NCBI GenBank assembly: GCA_010356995.1
Contig: ML996695.1
Coordinates: forward strand, 133,061-197,060
From: Trichodelitschia bisporula
Taxonomy: Eukaryota
Direction: 5' to 3'
DNA length: 64,000 bases
A program made the translations under genes and the position numbers. Each line of letters starts with the position of its first letter. Position 1 is the first letter of the stretch. Below, piece after piece: positions 3,001 through 56,709 of this stretch. Below the pieces are notes generated by a model. It saw only the letters and a list, made by a program, of their open reading frames with translations, was not told the origin of the DNA and ran no database searches.

Positions 3001-6000
3001 CCCTGGTCTGGCCCCAACCTGCCTGACCCTGAGATCACAGGCTCCCCTCCCTCTCTGCCTCTCTCTGCCTTTGCTCTGCTACTCTCTCAAACTGCTCTCT
3101 CCATTGCTCTTCTCCCAATGCTCTTCTCCCAATGCATCTCTATCGTCCACTGTTCGCCTCTCGTCAACCATAACCAGCTGCAAGCAGTCTCTCTTCACCA
3201 AAACTCAACTCATTTTCCCTAGACAAAAAGATCTTTGCCCTTCTGTCACTGACATTCAATTCATATGCCCATAACCCCCTCCCTCCCCTCTCATCTTCCA
3301 CCCCCCTACCCCTCCTACAAATCCACCACACACATACCACCGCCCCCCTCTTCCCCGCCACCCCCCCCCCCAGTCCTTTCAACTGAGTACCCATGCCACT
3401 GCTGCCGTGAGCGCACTCCCGCACTCTCTTCAAAATCATCGCAACCCCACCCGGATGTCCAATGCCATTTCGCGCCGTTGAGAGATCAAACGAAACAAAA
3501 GTGATCGTGGGACAGGAGAGGAAAAACGGCCGGTTCAGAAAGAGCACGAGGTCCAATAAAGGGGAGCGAAATTCAATTTGATATCGGCCATCCTGCAGTC
3601 CTGCAGCCCGACCCCACGAAGGAGACGACACGACCCCCCCCATCACCATCCTCCGCACGCCGCCTAGAGGACGAACAAACTTCACGAGACCACGGGAGAA
3701 GCGCGTCTTAGCGCCACCGCAACGCACCTCCGTCGTTAAACCCCCCGTACCGTACACTCTCCGTCGCGCGCATCTCATGCGCCTCTCTCGACGAACCTTC
3801 CAAACTTCCTCGTCTGCACTCACACCATCCACCCCCGGAAAGGTCGGTTCCATCTCCCGTATTCCTTAACATCTTGCATATCCAATCCACCTCTCCCCCC
3901 CTCCCTCAACCACCCCATCCAACCAGGCTCTGCTCTTCTTCTTCTCCCTTTGTCGGTAGTCGTCTGCCTTTCCAAAGACCCCCCTGTCGCGTTTTAAACG
4001 TCCGCCGCTTTTCCCTTCCAGGCTTTGCCCCACAGAACCGTGGGCGCAACTCGACTGGTTAGAGAGCGAGGCAAGGTGCAGGACTGCAGGTCGCATCAGC
4101 AGCCGGTCGGCCTCGATCCATCATTTTGCAACCACACCCTAAACTCGAAATTCTCCTCAGCCTTTCTCATCCCATCGTTTTGTCTTTCCCTCCTCGCGGA
4201 CCTGCTACGAGAGCGTTTTGCCAGAGCTGTCGCGACGGCAGGAGCACACTCTCCAGGGGCCATTCCTCCTGCAGCGCATCGAACCATGGGATTTTGCTCC
4301 CGCCTGGCTCCCGAACTCCTTCCGCAACGTACTCCCGAGGATCTCAACTCACCTGCGTAGAACTGTGCCATCGTGCCCGCACTCATTTCTCCCACCAATC
4401 CATCGCCGCCTTCTATGCAACGAACCATCCCGCTTTCGGCTTTTCCTGCGTACGCTTTTCGTCTTCAGCAGACTTAGACTGCCTCCCGGTTCTCCCGTTT
4501 TTGGCTTTGCGATTTTGGTAAATAATCCCCTTTCGCAGCGTTTTGTGGCCCCAAGTCTGTCGCATCCGCCGTCGCCGTCTGCTTATCACTCATGTACTGC
4601 AGACTCTAGACCAGATATCTGTACTTTAGACATTTGGTTCTTAGATCTGTGTGAGCCACCGTCGTTGTTTAACCGCCGCTAGCGTTTACCGCGGTTTCCC
4701 CGATGTATCCGTCTCTAACCTCTTGCAGACAGTTGGCGTTTCGTTATCGAAGAATTCCGACCGCTCAGTTTTTGTTTATCACTTGCATTCTGGTAAGCAG
4801 TCCTCTCGTCCGTTATTGATTTCGTTGTCGTATCATCTTGGATGCGAGTTCGTCGAGGCTGCCTCGAGTAGCGATTCCGAGCGCATCTGGGTCTCTGAGC
4901 CTCATCCTTGGCAGTCGGGATCGGGCAACATCTGACGGAGGCGCTGCCCGATCGCACACCCAGCTTTCCTAAACTGTGTTTGCTGGAAAGGTCCCGATGT
5001 GATCTCACGTCGTCTGATTTGCCTTGAATCTCGTCTTCCGACCTTAGCGGCATCCTGTGCTTCTTTCTGTTACACGGCCGTGGTTTCTAGCTCGTTGGCT
5101 TGTTAGTACAGTAGCCGTAACTGACCGACGGCTAGGTTGTAATCCCCAAGGACATAATTCAACTCGCCGAGACGACCGCTCGTACGGAACTGTAGCATAG
5201 GTGAAGGCGGACCGGTTTTCCTCATCACTTCTTTTCTCCAGCCCCCGCGGGACATCGACCACTATCACTTCCATCGTACTTAGGAAATCCGCGGCACTCT
5301 GGTGATTCTGGAATCCCAATATCAATTCATACCATCTCCAACACTATAGACCCAGGAACTACCGACACACCATCAGCCAATCCCCTTGACCGGCCTCGGA
5401 ATCAGACTCCGTCGCGACCGCCTGTTACCCATATTACGTCTTCCCGACTGCGAGCGGTACTCAGTTGTGACCAGCGACCTGGAAGGCACTGCATAATTGG
5501 AGGTGCAACGTGCACAAATTTCCCGACGTTTCCTGCTTTCCGTACCTTCGCAGTGACAGGTGACCTGCAAGTGCTTTGCGCAGTCACACCAGCGCTTCCC
5601 AGGTACGTCAGATCTTCCCCGCCTTGACTCTCGCTGCATTTCCGCCAACCTGGGTGTTTGCGTGGGTCCGATTCATTAGCTCTTGATTTCCCGACCCCGA
5701 TCCGCTGTTCCCCTTTTCGATCCCCGGACACTTGAGCCCATTCGGCTCCATCGGCTGCATTGGACCTGAATGTTGTGTGCGCTTACTTACTCGGTCAATC
5801 GTTTCGCCAATTTTGCTTGTTATATGCTTGCGCTCGTTGCTGATATCCGTAGCTTCTTCGCAGCATAAATCGTATCGCTCTCCACCTGAGTCCATAGCTG
5901 GTGCTCTGGGAACGGGCAGAGCGATCAATTCCACGTTGCAGTGCAGCGCGCCTCTCCCGGACGACAAAGCGTGCTGCACCCGGCTCCATCCCATGCGAAA

Positions 6001-6185
6001 CACTGCTGCGTATGGGCGGCCGTGGTTTTGCTTGGTCACTTCAAAGACATCCCTATAGCGTTAGTGGGCTGTTATGAGACATTGTCTTACACCCCCGCAA
6101 TCACACAGCATATCCTTTCCGGGCGTAGACGGCTAAACCACGTCAGCCTAAACCACAGCCTCGCTATCCGTCTACAAAAACGACC

Positions 6186-9039
6186 ATGACATCGTCAACC
6201 TCAGCTGCGGCTCATCCGCCTCCTGGGCGCAATTCGCTGCCAGGAGGCCACATCATGCCTCCGTCTAGCATTGTTGAAAAGAAGAGCATGGGCTCGGTGC
6301 GTCGGTCTACCCCCGATTCAGAGGCAGTCACTTCGGACGATGATCACGAGCAAACACCCGCAATGTCCATGTCATTGTACTCAGTAAAGAGCATGCCGAT
6401 GCAACGTCCAGTCAGGCGGTCCTCTTGGCTGAGCGAGGTTCAGTCTTCGCAGCAGCGCAAGTACTCACTAAGTGGCATGTCGCTCGCCTCTACGGGCTCG
6501 CAACCGACGACTCCAGCTGGGGAGAATGGGCCATGGGATGCCGCTTCGCATGCACCTCGCCCCGGTACGAGTGGCACCTCGTTTCCTTGGACCCCGCAAG
6601 TCTGGCAAAAGGATCGACCGCCTCGCTTGGCTGAAGTCTTGCAATCTCCCACGAGCACCTTCCCGGACGACCTACGCTCGCCGACGATGCGCGAACATGG
6701 GCCTAATGCTGGTCTGCCGTTTGAGATCCCGCTCGAACCAAGCCGCAAAACTGTCCGGTCCCAATCGTACTCCGCGGGGCAGCTTGACAAGACCCCAGGG
6801 TTCGAGAACATGCATCAGCCTGGGCCGTATAAGATGAAGACGAGCCTGATGCATCGCCCTTCTCGTCCCAGCATGCTGGGCGACAGTGGCAGAGACCCCC
6901 TTTCGTCGCTCCGAGAGGACGAAGATGACGTGGGCAGCTCCACTGGTTCCGATCCTGACCTTAGGCTCCAGCCGTCAATGACAAATCCGGAGGTGTCGCG
7001 AACGTTTGGTCAGAACGACATGTTCAAACAGGCCAGCTTCGAGAATGGTCGCGCCCTTGCTGCTGCTGCTGCTTCTGGCCAGCAAAACAGCGGCTTCCGC
7101 TACCCGCGAAGGAACGCGCCGACCTTTCCATCTCCTCCTCCACTCCCACAGCTCGACATTGAATACGCGGTGACGGATGAGACGGAGGAACCCGTCGAGA
7201 ACTTTGGCGATTCTGGGAGGCTAGCCCGTCACTCGGTTTCGGGAGCATCGCCCGGGGCCCCACTGTCGCCGTTGGATACAGTCCTGGAGAACCGGACGTT
7301 GGAGGGACTGAAGAAGGCACAGTGGCAATCTTCTCTCGGGTTCGGCATCCCAGAGGAAGGTTCACAGAGCCGCCGCCACTCGTTTGCCGATCTACCACGA
7401 CACGAGGCAGTGGCGCGGAAGAGTCCGGATGGAAGCGGTGCTGTCCAGTATGGTGGTTATATGGACCACGTTACGTCCCTTGTTTCGCAAATGAGTATGG
7501 GTGACATGAGGCACCAGGATCACGGTGTGGATGAAGGTAAGCTCCCTGGATCAATCCACCGGTTGTAGTCGAGTCACCCATTGCAAAAGTTTTTGTACTA
7601 ACAGCATCTTGCAGCTCTGCATTTCCACGGTGGCGAAGCTCAGAAGCGGTACGCCCGAGAGCGAGCTGATGAGTTCAACCCTTTTGCGGTCTCCAACCAT
7701 TTCGCGCGCCCGCAGCGCATCCTCTACCTCGTATCCTTTAAGTGCAAGCGCTCGGACATTTACTATATTCCGGACAACACCGGACTGCAGGTCAAGGCTG
7801 GCGACACCGTCATTGTCGAAGGTGATCGCGGGCAGGATCTCGGCACGGTGGAGCATACGCACGTCACCATGGAGCAGGCTAAGAAGCTCAAGGAAGAGTT
7901 TGGCCACAAGCACTTCCGCTGCCTCATGATGTTCTCTCGCATGTATCCCCACGTCGCAGAGCTAGCGAATGATGAAGTGGCATTCACGAAGGCTATCACT
8001 GGCGCAGCTGGTGCGCAGGGGCTTCCTATGGCTGGAAATATGCCTGGGATGGGACCCACCCATGCTCGCGACGCCATGGCCCAGTTCGAACCCGAGCCTC
8101 GTCCCAAGATGATCAAGCGCGTGGCGAGACCGGATGAGGTGAACCTTCTACGGGAGAAAGAAGGAAACGAAGCAAAGGCCAAACGGGTTTGCCAAAGCAA
8201 AGTCAACGACCATAGCCTCAGAATGGAGATTCTGGACGCCGAGTTTCAGCAGTACGTTCGTCACCTAGTCATTGTACACTATGCTAACTCCCCGCAGCGA
8301 CTATCGCAAGCTCACATTCTTCTACTATGCCGAGGAATACATCAACTTCAACGACCTCGTCACTGACCTATTCAAGGTCTACAAGACACGGATCTGGATG
8401 TCCGCCATCAACCCCGGCTCCTACACAGCGATGAATCCCAACGCAGGCATTCGCGCTCAACCCTGGGCCAAACCCGCTCACCCCACTCACCCCGCACACC
8501 CAACCCTAATGCGCCAGCAGGACGATCCTCGAATCGCAATGGAGGCCCGCAAGCGCATCTCGCCGCAAGACCTGCTGCGCACTCAGGCGCGGGAGCGGAG
8601 CGCCGAAGACGCGCAGGTGCGCAAGGAGTACGAGCGCGCTATGCACCTCGAGGCAGCAGCGAAAGCGGGCTATATGGATCGCGGCCAGGAGTACGCCCAG
8701 GCGCAACAGTCATTCGAGGCGCGGCGCGCAAACGCGTTCCCCGCCTTTGCGCACCAGTTCGTACAGTCGGTACCGGCGGCACCGTGGAGCCAGGCCCTCC
8801 CGGGCGTAGGCTTGCCCTTCCCGTACGGATATCCCGAGCGCGACCCGTCCACCAATTACGCCATCTCGGCCATGATGCCGCTGGCTTCGAATCTCGGACA
8901 CCCGACGGCATTCACGCCGCGTGGCGGTATTCCGCCGCAGTTTGGTGGCAACCAGGCGTTCTCGCCTAGCTCGGAGGTTATGATGGAGGCGCTGCAGGAT
9001 CAATACCAGCGGTATTCGCTTGATCCGCGGCGGGGATAG
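6186..9039 (+). CDS. PSP1 C-terminal domain protein (3 exons; introns 7537-7614 and 8252-8297)
   Basis: Long Ser-rich N-terminus with RRHS/RRSS motifs. Splicing the GTAAGC..TACTAAC..CAG and GTACGT..GCTAAC..CAG introns joins LYLVSFKCKRSDIYYI..GDTVIVEGDRGQDLGTV and MEILDAEFQHDYRKLTFFYYAEEYINFNDLVTDLFKVYKTRIWMSAINP, typical of the PSP1 domain. Confidence 0.9.
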
Positions 9040-9899
9040 AGGACGACTTGGAAGACGGAGAAGAATCAACAGCGATAGAGGGCGACGACGTACAGCAAAT
9101 TTGCCTTGGATCTTTCCCCACCACGATCCGCCACGGCTGTGGCATGCTAGACAGCGCTCATTTTTACCAAAATCAGAAGTGGCCCCCTTTAGACTTGTTA
9201 GAGGGTTGGGTAAGGTCGGCGGCAACAAGCCGATGAGAAAACGACGGAAACGCCTAATGATTGTCTTTGGGTTTCCGGTTTGAGGTTCGGGATTGGGGTG
9301 TTTGGGTGCATGTGTTTTTTCGGGTCGCTTGCGTTGTCTCCTGCTACTGCTGCTGCTGTTGCTGCTGCCAGCCTGCTTGCTTTTTGCTTGCGCGGGTAAA
9401 ACGGCGAAAGTAATGGACGGAAGAGAAAACTGAAGATCTGCATGGGAGACCTGGGTGTATGGGTTTTTTTCGCGCGCACATACTTTTGGTGGCTTAATCG
9501 TCTGGACCTGGATGGGGATGCAAACCGGGACTGTCTTTTTGTTTTTGCTTTGACCATTTACTCGGATGCGAGACTTTCTCTTCTCTGGGACTCGGTATAG
9601 ATGCGACCATCTATATGGGTCTTGTTACTTATTAAGATGGGCTTTTGACGATGTTTTTCGGTTTTCGGCGGGCTTGTATGAGATACGGGAGTAATGGCAG
9701 CAGCTTTTGCTTGCATTGGGTTCATGTCTTTGCTTGTGCCGTGCGCGTCTGACGGGTCTGGATGCCAGCCGCATATCGGAGGCACCCCATCGCGCTTTCC
9801 TCCCCGGATGAGACCAGCTACGTCATGCCCACGGACGACATATCCTCCTCAACTCCTAGCACCTCCAAACCCATCCCAACCATTCACCACAAACCCATC

Positions 9900-10824
9900 A
9901 TGCCGCCCCATCGCAAGTCCGCGAGAGTCACCTCCCCCAAGCCAACCCCAGACTCCGAAATCCTAGCCCCGTATCTCACCTCCTTCTCCGCCACCATAAA
10001 ACGCGACCGGAAGGACGTGGCCGCGTACCTAAATACACAGATCACCACCGCGTAAACCTCCCCTCCTTTATCTACACTTCTAACCAGTCGTGTCATCAAC
10101 CAATTCAATCATGATTGGAAGGCGGTTTTCATGCCGTCGAGCCTGGTATAAGCCAAAAGCAACAGGGGTTACCTAAAAAGGTTATAGCCGCCTCCATAAG
10201 CTTTCGCTGCATGGCTTTTGGGCATAACCTTTTTGATAACTCTTGCCACTATTGGCGTACACTGGGCGAGGCAACATGAAAACCGCATTTCAATCATGAT
10301 TGAAGTGATTGGCGACATGACTGCCTCTAACCCTGGCCAGGAAATCTGCCTCTGTCGACCGCGCAGCGCACATCGAGGCCGTGCTCCAAGTTCGCAGTGG
10401 AGCACTGGCTAAATCCCAAGCGTCCATGCGTGCTGCGGCGGAGCGCACGCTGGGGTATGCTCGGGACGTGTTGGCGGAGTATGAGGCCCTGGTCGAGGCG
10501 ACTGAGGGGGCGGGAGGGGTGGTACTTGCTGTGGATGGGGTGTTGAAGGGGATGAGGGGAGATGCGAGGGAGGCTAAGAGGGTGTTGGGTGTGGGGAAGA
10601 GGGTAGGGGAGGAGAGGGTTGGGCGGTTGGTTGGTATGGCGAGGTCTGGAGGGCAAGAGGAGGGTGGGCCTGTGGAGAGATTCTTCGTGGACGGGAAGCA
10701 CGATTCGACGGGCGTGAAGGAGACGGTGAGTGCGCTGGGCCGGGCGGTGGGGATGCTTGCTCGGCCACTGCCCGTTGAGGACGAGGGGGAGAATGGGCGG
10801 CCCGCGAAGCGCAAGAAGATGTAG
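9900..10824 (+). CDS. Hypothetical protein (2 exons; intron 10052-10340 containing a MITE), basic NLS-like C-terminal tail PAKRKKM
   Basis: ATG 9900. The phase-2 intron GTAAAC...CTCTAAC..CCAG joins exon 1 (..NTQITTA) in frame to KSASVDRAAHIEAVLQVRSG.. of ORF 10381-10824. Confidence 0.7.
10085..10323. mobile_element. Non-autonomous fold-back element (MITE), hAT-like
   Basis: Ends CAGTC...GACTG. Arms of about 105 bp are inverted repeats (42 of the first 49 nt match by manual alignment, mismatches mostly transitions). Flanked by 8-bp direct repeats CTTCTAAC (10077-10084) and CCTCTAAC (10324-10331). Confidence 0.8.
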
Positions 10825-10836
10825 ATCCTCAATACA

Positions 10837-11637
10837 TCAGTCACCCCTCACACGCCCGCACATTACCACATCCTGGCCAAACTGTCTCCAAACCACATCC
10901 TTCAACCTCGCAACCGGTACCCGTACCCCTTTGTTATGCCTCGCCCCAGGCGCAACCGCAACCCCGCCTTCGCCCAACCACACCGGTGCCAGCGTAACAA
11001 CCACCGCGCCCACGAAATTTATATTCTCCGGCGCGAGCAGCCCGTTGATCACCGAAGCCCCACCTTCGACCATCACGCTCTCAATCCCGCACTCAGCCAG
11101 CGCGGACATGATATCGCGCCACTTAATTCGGCCCCGGTCGTCTATGTCTGGCGACGATGCGAGGCGGATATACTGTCCACCAACGCCCTGCAGCGCGGCT
11201 TCCCATTCAGGCGGGACGGACGTGGCCTTGCGCGTAATGACCCACGGCGCCTTCCCCCGCCCTGCCCGCGCGAGTGCGAGGACCTGCGACCGACTCACGT
11301 CCCACCGGCCACGGGGATCGAGGATGATAGGTCTGGGCTGGGATGAGAGGGTGGTTTCGGGGAGGCGTGCGTTCAGGGCGGGATCATCAATCACGGCGGT
11401 GTTGGCGCCAATTAGGATGGCTTGATGTTTGGTGCGAAGGTAGTGTGTCATAGCCTTTGTTTCGGGGCCGGAGAGGGGAGTTTGCGAGTCGAGGAAAGAG
11501 AGGGCGGAGTCGAGGGAGGTGGCGTAGGTTAAGGTGAGGAAGGGGGAGGAGGGGGAGGTGATGAGGGAGGGGAGGAAGGGGGATAGGTAAGATGGGACAT
11601 CTGGGGGGAGAACGAGTGGCGGTTTAGGTGGCATCAT
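10837..11637 (-). CDS. RIB7: 2,5-diamino-6-ribosylamino-4(3H)-pyrimidinone 5'-phosphate reductase (riboflavin synthesis, RibD C-terminal family)
   Basis: PFLTLTYATSLDSAL, LSGPETKAMTHYLRTKHQAILIGANTAVIDDPALNARL, QPRPIILDPRGR, IESVMVEGGASVINGLL. Start taken at MMPPKPP (11637). Confidence 0.92.
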   Translation of the reverse strand: MMPPKPPLVLPPDVPSYLSPFLPSLITSPSSPFLTLTYATSLDSALSFLDSQTPLSGPETKAMTHYLRTKHQAILIGANTAVIDDPALNARLPETTLSSQPRPIILDPRGRWDVSRSQVLALARAGRGKAPWVITRKATSVPPEWEAALQGVGGQYIRLASSPDIDDRGRIKWRDIMSALAECGIESVMVEGGASVINGLLAPENINFVGAVVVTLAPVWLGEGGVAVAPGARHNKGVRVPVARLKDVVWRQFGQDVVMCGRVRGD

Positions 11638-12790
11638 CGTGGTGAAGTCAAGGCTGGTGAGAAGTACGGGGTTGAGTTGAAGTCGGATGGACGTCGTCTC
11701 ACAGGCTCGGCCCGAAGCGGGGCACCCCAACAACGGCGACGGGCTACCCGCATGTGCACGTCCCCACCTTACAAAGCAAAAGCAACTCCCCAGCCACACC
11801 CACACGCAAGATTCGGCAGCCCGCGGCTCATCTCATCTCGCGCTGCAAGCGCAATGTCATCGTCCGCCTATCGTCCCCGCGCAGCCAATATTTGCACCCC
11901 TTTCAGTGGCTGGAAGGACGGGGGGGGATATTATTGGCTGCGAGGCGCCACGCGGTGCGCGCGTTTGTGTTCCTGCGTCCGCCACGCGGGTGGCTCGTAT
12001 TGGGAAATGAAACGGGCAGGCGAGTTGCGATTCGTACGGCGGCGCGTCCGGCGGTTGGGTTTTGGTGATGTAATGGAATGGATAGGTGATGATGGGTGGT
12101 TTTTTGGGGTAGATTGCGTCGGTTGGGACGGGGGGGGGATATTGTGGCCGGTGAGGGTAGGGATTGAAGCCACGGCGTGTATGGGAATTTTGAGGATCTG
12201 TTGAGAAGTTTGGACTGGTTGGGAGGGTGAGATGAAGGTTCGCTGACGTCGTTGGGGGACTGAGAAAGTTATTTCGAGGGTGTCAGGCGTACAGCTATTT
12301 GGACGTAGGCAGATGACGATACTCACCTCCAGTGTGAGATTACCCTTGTGTTCGAGTTGGGAATCACGAGTCCCATGATCCCGGATTGCGGATGGCTCTC
12401 CGCGCGGAATGCCCAATCTGTGTAAAGTGCACCTACTATCGGAATGCAACCGATCAGCAACCTAAATCCAACGTCAAGAACAGCAAAAGCAAGGTAAGAA
12501 AAAGCAGGTGCTCATGCCAACATCATATTGCGACATTAGACACTATTTACAAGCGGCCGACAAAAGTCCAGTCGCAACATCAGAAAAATTCACATCCCAT
12601 CCACGCTACATCACCCGCAAACCACAAATACCAAAAGGAGAATCAAATGTATGCCTCAATCGGCAAACCAGCATCAAAGCCAGTCACCAAAAAAACGCTT
12701 ACAAGCTAGCACAAGCTACAAATCGCCAATCCGCCGAATCCCGCGGCTAAAACCCGCGTCCAGCCAAGCCCTTCCTTTCTTCCTCAGCGC

Positions 12791-55917: not shown

Positions 55918-56709
55918 NNNNNNNNNNNNNNNNNNNNNNNNNNNNNNNNNNNNNNNNNNNNNNNNNNNNNNNNNNNNNNNNNNNNNNNNNNNNNNNNNNN
56001 NNNNNNNNNNNNNNNNNNNNNNNNNNNNNNNNNNNNNNNNNNNNNNNNNNNNNNNNNNNNNNNNNNNNNNNNNNNNNNNNNNNNNNNNNNNNNNNNNNNN
56101 NNNNNNNNNNNNNNNNNNNNNNNNNNNNNNNNNNNNNNNNNNNNNNNNNNNNNNNNNNNNNNNNNNNNNNNNNNNNNNNNNNNNNNNNNNNNNNNNNNNN
56201 NNNNNNNNNNNNNNNNNNNNNNNNNNNNNNNNNNNNNNNNNNNNNNNNNNNNNNNNNNNNNNNNNNNNNNNNNNNNNNNNNNNNNNNNNNNNNNNNNNNN
56301 NNNNNNNNNNNNNNNNNNNNNNNNNNNNNNNNNNNNNNNNNNNNNNNNNNNNNNNNNNNNNNNNNNNNNNNNNNNNNNNNNNNNNNNNNNNNNNNNNNNN
56401 NNNNNNNNNNNNNNNNNNNNNNNNNNNNNNNNNNNNNNNNNNNNNNNNNNNNNNNNNNNNNNNNNNNNNNNNNNNNNNNNNNNNNNNNNNNNNNNNNNNN
56501 NNNNNNNNNNNNNNNNNNNNNNNNNNNNNNNNNNNNNNNNNNNNNNNNNNNNNNNNNNNNNNNNNNNNNNNNNNNNNNNNNNNNNNNNNNNNNNNNNNNN
56601 NNNNNNNNNNNNNNNNNNNNNNNNNNNNNNNNNNNNNNNNNNNNNNNNNNNNNNNNNNNNNNNNNNNNNNNNNNNNNNNNNNNNNNNNNNNNNNNNNNNN
56701 NNNNNNNNN
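55918..56709. other. Assembly gap (792 N)
   Basis: Run of N. Confidence 1.

Follow-up and report, generated by a model that had tools for sequence, protein, structure and literature searches.

A fold-back insert in a short intron of Trichodelitschia bisporula, probably the relic of a non-autonomous DNA transposon that duplicated the branch site

Introduction

The locus described here raises the question of what a long self-complementary sequence is doing at the branch site of a fungal intron, and whether the intron can still be spliced around it. The original prediction, made from the letters of the DNA, held that a hAT-like fold-back MITE had inserted at the branch point, duplicated it and created a cryptic poison exon. 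The stretch analyzed, referred to as the window, comprises 64,000 nucleotides of Trichodelitschia bisporula contig ML996695.1 (assembly GCA_010356995.1, positions 133,061 to 197,060 of the forward strand), and all coordinates given without a locus name are those of the window. The assembly searched consists of 25.8 Mb in 44 contigs, the window lying within contig C9, and has compact genes with fungal splice signals. Window positions 55918-56709 are an assembly gap of 792 N.

Results

The host gene and its intron

The gene that carries the insert was reconstructed from its translation and from the list of open reading frames. The database ORF call at this place spans 9762-10052 only. The parts are as follows.

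9900..10051, + strand: inferred coding exon 1, with ATG at 9900 and an upstream in-frame ATG at 9762
10052..10340, + strand: inferred U2 intron of 289 nt, GTAAAC...CAG
10052..10057, + strand: weak 5' splice site GTAAAC
10338..10340, + strand: 3' splice site CAG
10341..10824, + strand: inferred coding exon 2, mostly helical with a basic C-terminus

When 9900-10051 is joined to 10341, a single open frame of 211 aa results, while retention of the intron leads to an immediate stop. To judge from these signals, the 289-nt intron and its splicing are likely. The donor has A at +5, which is found in 3% of 2022 Fusarium introns with lengths of 42-529 nt (PMC5677156). An alternative weak donor in the same phase, GTACCT, is present at 10025. 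At the other end of the intron, the CTAAC at 10327-10331 lies 6 nt from the CAG acceptor, the commonest branch site-acceptor distance in a Hypoxylon intron set (PMC9024468).

We also considered that there may be no such gene or intron, in which case the fold-back would be part of RNA that is non-coding or seldom spliced. No homologue of the protein was found in Pfam or by phmmer against 1.84 billion representative proteins, and the only match in a word-seeded search of 844 word-sharing candidates was the window's own ORF. A metagenome scan gave a sole match, 33% over 78 residues, which was dropped and which we take to resemble a bacterial insertion-sequence ORF. The single-sequence structure model had a pLDDT of 59, and its Foldseek and VIA-align matches were generic coiled coils only. 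These results, together with the rare donor type, would suit a spurious gene. However, the GT...AG joining produces a single frame of 211 aa, and both the branch site and the acceptor are of textbook form. A weak lead in the same direction, weak because recognition was 1571, comes from the Atlas, in which the closest clusters consist of unnamed Ascomycota proteins with lengths of 208, 156 and 206 aa (scores 0.91, 0.90 and 0.89). A spurious gene or intron appears very unlikely.

Assembled contigs of four runs, representing at most two samples, listed no splice joint in the host gene. In two of these runs, from one study and guessed to be RNA, one contig ends at 10052, the point at which spliced and unspliced forms part. 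Another contig of the same two runs spans 9837-10092, extending 41 bases into the intron, and the region 10093-10604 had no listed cover in either run. Holes in contig cover prove nothing, and none of these observations was given weight. The neighboring gene on the minus strand (10837-11642) is convergent, its end lying 12 bases from the host stop codon, and from its resemblance we take it to be a RibD/Rib7-type pyrimidine reductase.

Structure of the fold-back insert

Most of the intron consists of an insert with the following parts.

10085..10323, no strand assigned: fold-back insert of 239 bp, 46% G+C, ends CAGTC...GACTG
10085..10185, + strand: 5' arm, about 100 bp
10224..10323, + strand: 3' arm of about 100 bp, with about 76% complementarity to the 5' arm
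10104..10133, + strand: best-paired 30-bp stretch of the stem, with 2 differences, which includes a 12-bp palindrome

The original prediction of an element of this length, inverted almost throughout and bounded by these ends, was correct in coordinates and letters, and the palindrome that it placed in each arm, CAATCATGATTG, is present in both. An ungapped alignment of 10085-10178 with 10230-10323 showed 74% complementarity; when gaps were allowed, Watson-Crick pairs occupied 76 of the 101 columns. The insert is the longest inverted repeat in the window among pairs up to 1.5 kb apart. The hairpin was confirmed by folding: the RNA of 10052-10340 had a predicted energy of -122.7 kcal/mol compared with a shuffle mean of -71.5 (z -10.5), and none of 200 shuffles was as stable. 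The insert has no sequence match to its own flanks, and its G+C content contrasts with the 60-65% of the exons. The ORFs that cross it are short and of chance length only. A non-coding sequence of less than 500 bp with terminal inverted repeats has the anatomy of a MITE.

The flanking direct repeat and the reconstructed empty site

The insert is bordered on both sides by copies of a short direct repeat.

10077..10084, + strand: left copy, CTTCTAAC, with a spare branch-site motif at 10080-10084; it reaches 10085 if the repeat is read as 9 bp and spans 10076-10085 if it is read as 10 bp
10324..10331, + strand: right copy, CCTCTAAC, with the likely working branch site CTAAC at 10327-10331, 6 nt before the acceptor

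The repeat containing CTAAC, as claimed, is real, the two copies CTTCTAAC and CCTCTAAC differing at 1 of 8 positions. It can be read as 8 bp, as 9 bp with one mismatch or as 10 bp with two transitions, in which case the element becomes 10086-10322 and its ends are still symmetric; a single copy cannot fix the length of the duplication. Under every reading, removal of the element and one copy of the repeat leaves an empty site of 42 nt with the order GT...CTAAC...CAG, the ordinary short intron that had been predicted. With the upstream donor at 10025, the empty intron would be 69 nt.

A flank match at this fixed place had a chance of 0.0003 when compared with sampled genome DNA (252 of 788,351 positions) and of 0.004 when the 5' part of the intron itself was shuffled. 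The predicted ensemble gave the left copy an unpaired probability of 0.94-0.99, and both CTAAC motifs are open. It is unremarkable that the branch site falls within the duplication because, by arithmetic, 4 of the 35 8-bp windows in a 42-nt intron contain the entire CTAAC, and because harmful insertions would not survive; no special cause is needed. The earlier explanation of why the insertion is tolerated also held up, in that the downstream repeat keeps CTAAC at a normal distance from the acceptor, which would make the insert harmless.

Copy number

When the whole element or a single arm was used to search the genome, the only locus returned was its own. The same search, when applied to an unrelated 222-bp fold-back family as a positive control, returned 86 matches with identities down to 68-70%. 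On this sequence comparison, there appears to be no further copy of moderate age, while very old copies could be missed by a DNA search. The core palindrome pattern occurred at 1 other place in the genome (1 in the control) with nothing related around it. An 18-base pattern of the ends, with up to 3 mismatches allowed, gave 268 matches compared with 107 for the control; none of the 28 loci examined, out of 266 other matches, had an inverted partner within 1.4 kb, and 3 further close plus/minus pairs of the pattern were unrelated to the insert. Furthermore, an unpaired source of either arm was not found elsewhere in the genome, an exact 30-base pattern of the insert had no match in JGI metagenomes, and BLASTN of the insert against plasmids gave no match.

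MITE families have been defined by 10 or more copies (PMC3227409), and many copies of uniform size are expected of them. The insert, in contrast, occupies a single place, so the term MITE, used in the sense of a family, was not borne out. The original prediction had asked for other copies with 8-bp duplications and had named two observations that would together speak against a MITE, no other copies and a hairpin conserved in distant species; the first of these is what was found.

Other fold-backs in the genome

A self-comparison of 80 stretches, evenly spaced rather than random and amounting to 793 kb, was used to survey fold-backs elsewhere. Outside the window it gave 12 rows, from which a duplicate, a 42-bp G+C-rich row and a 66-bp low-complexity row were dropped, leaving 9. 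There were 8 fold-backs of at least 140 bp in 0.79 Mb, equivalent to about 260 per genome if the sample is fair. None of the 9 is related to the insert. Moreover, none has a direct repeat of at least 7 bp at the exact arm ends, in a scan that is blind to duplications of 2-3 bp. The insert is thus set apart by its duplication, which favors insertion at a staggered cut. Among some 260 fold-backs, however, 0.1-1 flank matches as good as that of the insert would be expected by chance. Scored for a preference for introns, 2 of the 9 and 0 of 8 copies of the 222-bp family were intron-like, compared with a background of 8%.

Two of the 9 belong to the 222-bp family, the 86 matches of which fall at about 42 places as counted by eye (representative L081:5972-6193). 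Eight copies of this family have 70-85 Watson-Crick pairs, G.U pairs about as numerous as A.C and a G+C content of 47-53%. The family thus resembles the insert in size, whole-length palindrome, G+C content and in the degree and symmetry of arm decay. However, it has no sequence similarity to the insert, and its ends, TATCCC...GGGATA, suggest a dinucleotide target. Copies also lie at L081:8492-8680 and in L130-L137, and the matches are strongly clustered on several contigs, with 2-5 of them within 1-10 kb.

Four of the surveyed fold-backs are single-copy, mutually unrelated and 143-325 bp long, with a decay pattern like that of the insert. Three of them, of 183, 215 and 143 bp, lie within 850 bp of one another (L085:5673-5855, 5986-6200 and 6381-6523; C6:305673-306523). 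The first begins at GTATGC; the second is bounded by GTATGT on one side and by a branch-like motif plus CAG on the other. The trio may represent introns of a single transcript that are filled by hairpins, or else a cluster of small-RNA loci. The fourth, of 325 bp and 46% G+C (L064:1989-2313; C3:99989-100313), has no flanking duplication and no nearby splice motifs. A young fold-back of 369 bp (L112:3854-4222; C13:103854-104222) has identical 150-bp arms and no flanking duplication, and one of its arms is also present unpaired on contig C29. The sequence just 3' of it presumably belongs to a 5S rRNA gene, which it resembles. In addition, an 87-bp palindrome (L103:1816-1902) has partial copies in the sampled stretches L103, L118 and L072.

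The proposed cassette exon

The original prediction paired the leading CAG of the element and an internal GTATAA with the duplicated branch site to define a cassette exon.

10088..10145, + strand: proposed 58-nt cassette exon, not supported; its cryptic sites are predicted to be paired and its upstream intron would be 36 nt

Such an exon could serve control by NMD or mark a step in intron gain. The motifs do exist, and a 58-nt exon would indeed shift the frame to the TAA at 10410-10412; moreover, the spare branch site is predicted to be unpaired and the true donor is weak. The geometry, however, is poor. The intron before the exon would span 36 nt, and CTAAC and CAG would be separated by 0 nt, compared with minima of 42 nt for the intron and 4 nt for the branch-acceptor distance in an intron-search model for Pezizomycotina (PMC9024468), and the shortest of the 2022 Fusarium introns is 42 nt (PMC5677156). 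In addition, both cryptic dinucleotides are predicted to be paired in the stem: the acceptor CAG (10085-10087) had unpaired probabilities of 0.42, 0.04 and 0.00, and the donor GT (10146-10147) 0.00 and 0.05. Motifs of this kind are cheap, the intron containing 12 AG and 11 GT dinucleotides. Of this claim, therefore, the motifs and the frameshift stood, and use of the exon did not, as its geometry falls below the working minima, its sites are predicted to be paired and no junction was seen. The original prediction had itself pointed to the closeness of the CAG to the upstream branch point; pending junction reads, this weakness of the geometry was taken as decisive, and a poison exon was judged most improbable. 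The same geometry and pairing leave the NMD switch and the intron-gain route unsupported.

Other readings of the intron were rejected. A cryptic exon at 10122-10145 (24 nt, in frame) had no support, its AAG acceptor lying 38 nt from the branch A and inside the best stem; nor had one at 10188-10256 (69 nt, with an in-frame stop). An introner-like element is a whole intron, splice sites included, repeated in many copies (PMC3609843), whereas the splice signals here lie outside a single-copy insert. A stwintron is defined by an internal U2 intron that splits one of the external intron's own signals, be it donor, branch site or acceptor (PMC8469720); here all three are intact without the removal of anything.

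Decay of the arms

The hairpin might also be kept by selection as an intronic RNA, either feeding Dicer as a milRNA or hairpin siRNA or tuning the rate of splicing. Its very stable fold (z -10.5) and the 30-bp stretch with only 2 differences agree with this, as does its single copy, which is the case for many small-RNA loci. A selected sense-strand hairpin would, however, favor G.U pairs, and besides the 76 Watson-Crick pairs the arms show 8 G.U, 9-10 A.C and 6 transversions. With 8 G.U against 10 A.C, there is no RNA-strand bias in the arm differences, and a selected RNA is not supported. Similarly, the folding energy of the insert is equal on both strands (-121.3 and -120.8). The strand-specific preservation of pairing expected of a milRNA was not seen.

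The well-paired stretch is itself within chance, since permutation gave p 0.12 for the best 30 bp and p 0.41 for the longest perfect run. No Rfam family was found, the 1 match being at chance level (21.7 bits compared with a cut-off of 48.5), and the core motif had no target-like match above the control (1 other place, control 1). Wholly intronic mi/milRNAs are described as very rare in fungi (PMC9757828). A selected RNA is accordingly quite improbable. The transitions in the insert showed no CpA enrichment as a signature of RIP (5 of 17, compared with 33 of 82 in the background).

Discussion

Origin of the insert

The insert is probably an old, solitary fold-back insertion, the relic of a non-autonomous, MITE-like DNA transposon, tolerated in its intron. 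Fold-back DNA, likely a non-autonomous cut-and-paste transposon, would have entered a short U2 intron of 42 nt, or of 69 nt if the upstream donor is used. A staggered cut would have duplicated 8-10 bp including the branch site. With CTAAC kept 6 nt ahead of the old CAG by the downstream copy, the splice signals that the intron started with, namely donor, branch site and acceptor, could still work, and a spare branch site would have been left upstream. The hairpin may fold out of the pre-mRNA, so that the single-stranded remainder comes to about 33 + 17 nt (about 50 nt), which is near the old geometry. The spliceosome would most likely use the donor at 10052, the branch A at 10330 and the acceptor at 10340, so that the insert leaves with the lariat, and the insert would have decayed neutrally after insertion. 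The hairpin, the direct repeat, the want of a second copy and the symmetric decay are direct observations; the pairing of the cryptic sites is predicted, and we infer the intron and its splicing, the transposon origin and the help from folding.

Several observations argue for a transposon. The direct repeat lies exactly at the arm ends, where its chance is 0.0003-0.004 per site, and 0 of 9 other fold-backs are alike in this. The insert differs from the exons in G+C and matches nothing in its flanks. In size, G+C content and decay it is matched by 8 members of the 222-bp family, so the genome does carry mobile elements that are palindromic over their whole length. The folding energy of the insert is also the same on the two strands. 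There are also precedents: fungal MITEs whose terminal inverted repeats (TIRs) measure 115 bp and whose target-site duplication (TSD) is 9 bp have been described (PMC3227409), Mutator elements make TSDs of 8 or 9 bp and have TIRs of more than 100 bp (PMC5225508), and repetitive elements within regular fungal introns are on record (PMC3609843). On the other side, genome searches found neither a second copy nor a parent element, no Mutator transposase matched 2 Pfam models, and a long direct repeat is missing from 4 other fold-backs of single copy. The expected 0.1-1 chance flank match among about 260 fold-backs also counts against a transposon, as do the weak donor, a host protein without a sequence homologue and the fact that no empty site was seen.

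This genome has many one-off fold-backs that bear no transposon marks, and a repair origin is therefore a serious rival. The insert could be hairpin filler DNA captured at a staggered double-strand break, or an inverted duplication in a once longer intron with a chance flank repeat. Its single copy and the lack of a parent element fit such an origin, as do the 4 fold-backs, unrelated and single-copy, that measure 143-325 bp and have decayed in a like pattern. The young fold-back of 369 bp, whose 150-bp arms are identical, which has no duplication and of which one arm is unpaired on C29, indicates that a route other than transposition exists in the genome. However, the direct repeat lies exactly at the arm ends, unlike in 9 of 9 other fold-backs, and a short intron that is complete remains once the insert is removed. 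The genome also has a true dispersed family built in the same way, and neither arm had an unpaired source elsewhere in the searches. A repair product is possible, if rather doubtful, and the splicing consequence would be the same, the insert being tolerated on either account.

A broader proposal, which we consider unlikely, is that the insert belongs to a set of fold-backs, perhaps two hundred or more, that are unrelated to one another and in many cases single-copy. These would have been made without ordinary transposition, by capture of hairpin DNA at staggered breaks or by fold-back duplication, and kept in introns because only self-folding inserts restore short-intron geometry. If this were true, the fungus would offer a natural test of the idea that introns can lengthen when the pre-mRNA folds, and would be a ready source of new Dicer substrates.

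Taken singly, the locus matters little, being a decayed self-complementary intron insert that shows no hint of a switch, a selected RNA or intron gain, though it illustrates how splice geometry can come through a target duplication unharmed. More useful is the wider pattern, since long fold-backs are frequent in the genome and several adjoin splice signals. It raises the question of whether long introns in short-intron fungi survive mainly where the extra DNA folds out.

Superfamily

The description of the element as hAT-like was not sustained. An 8-bp duplication is common to Mutator, its length here may equally be 8, 9 or 10 bp, and arms of about 100 bp are unlike the 10-bp TIRs of a hAT MITE. 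The TIRs of hAT elements are 5-27 bp, and the short TIRs of that superfamily are thus not what the insert has. The hAT dimerization domain, PF05699, had 6 matches in the genome. A search near these for a transposase with matching TIRs, as the original prediction had proposed, found no matching end pair within flanks of 1.5 kb, where there were only scattered 10-mers of the insert ends with 2 mismatches and no BLASTN match. The hAT matches (L006-L011) lie on contigs C29, C26, C23, C1 and C3. L007 and L008 share 1.2 kb at 99.6% identity and L009 and L011 share 0.8 kb at 99.5%, which indicates at least two recently copied hAT fragments.

Mutator MITEs combine TIRs of about 100 bp or more with TSDs of 8-9 bp, and the insert has arms of about that length and, on two of the three readings, a direct repeat of that size. 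In mosquitoes, Mutator elements have TSDs of 8 or 9 bp, and in 12 of 14 families the TIRs exceed 100 bp (PMC5225508). In Epichloe festucae, a hAT MITE has an 8-bp TSD with 10-bp TIRs, while two Mutator MITEs have a 9-bp TSD with TIRs of 115-116 bp (PMC3227409). Both superfamilies are reported to be ubiquitous in fungi (PMC5751038). A Mutator transposase was found neither with PF10551 (2 candidates scored) nor with PF00872 (0 candidates), and the lack of a match does not show absence. By its anatomy, the insert appears to fit Mutator at least as well as hAT; neither superfamily is assignable, since the Mutator-like anatomy comes with no match to the two Mutator Pfam models.

Comparison with known systems

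The ends of hAT elements start with CA or TA. The insert shares with hAT elements, including the hAT MITE EFT-11m, ends that start with CA and, on one reading, an 8-bp duplication. However, EFT-11m has 10-bp TIRs, whereas the insert is inverted over nearly its whole length and present in one copy (PMC3227409).

Closer in build are EFT-24m and EFT-26m, the two Mutator MITEs of E. festucae, which, like the insert, are non-coding, a few hundred bp long and decayed, with long TIRs (PMC3227409). As described there, their TIRs are about 115 bp and 81% and 93% identical, with a 9-bp TSD, compared with arms of about 100 bp, 76% and a repeat of 8-10 bp in the insert (PMC3227409). They are likened to the insert by anatomy and not by sequence, and they have 13 and 31 full copies, one of them with a parent element, whereas the insert has one copy and no parent or Mutator transposase was found for it (PMC3227409).

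The symmetrical sister stwintrons and introns of Hypoxylaceae also have long inverted repeats in the intron RNA with the splice signals outside the hairpin (PMC8469720). There, however, the account given is of whole introns that proliferate, with TIRs of 45-55 nt and no short flanking duplication, whereas the present case is a single insert inside an intron, with a duplication (PMC8469720).

In the repetitive elements recorded within regular fungal introns, which are distinguished from introner-like elements, as at this locus, the insert lengthens an existing intron and creates none (PMC3609843); the recorded cases are multi-copy and the insert described here is single (PMC3609843). A search of the open-access literature found no report of a TSD that duplicates a fungal branch site. 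The TSD-duplicated branch site is nevertheless a small variation on kinds already recorded, namely repeats in fungal introns and degenerate long-TIR MITEs in ascomycetes.
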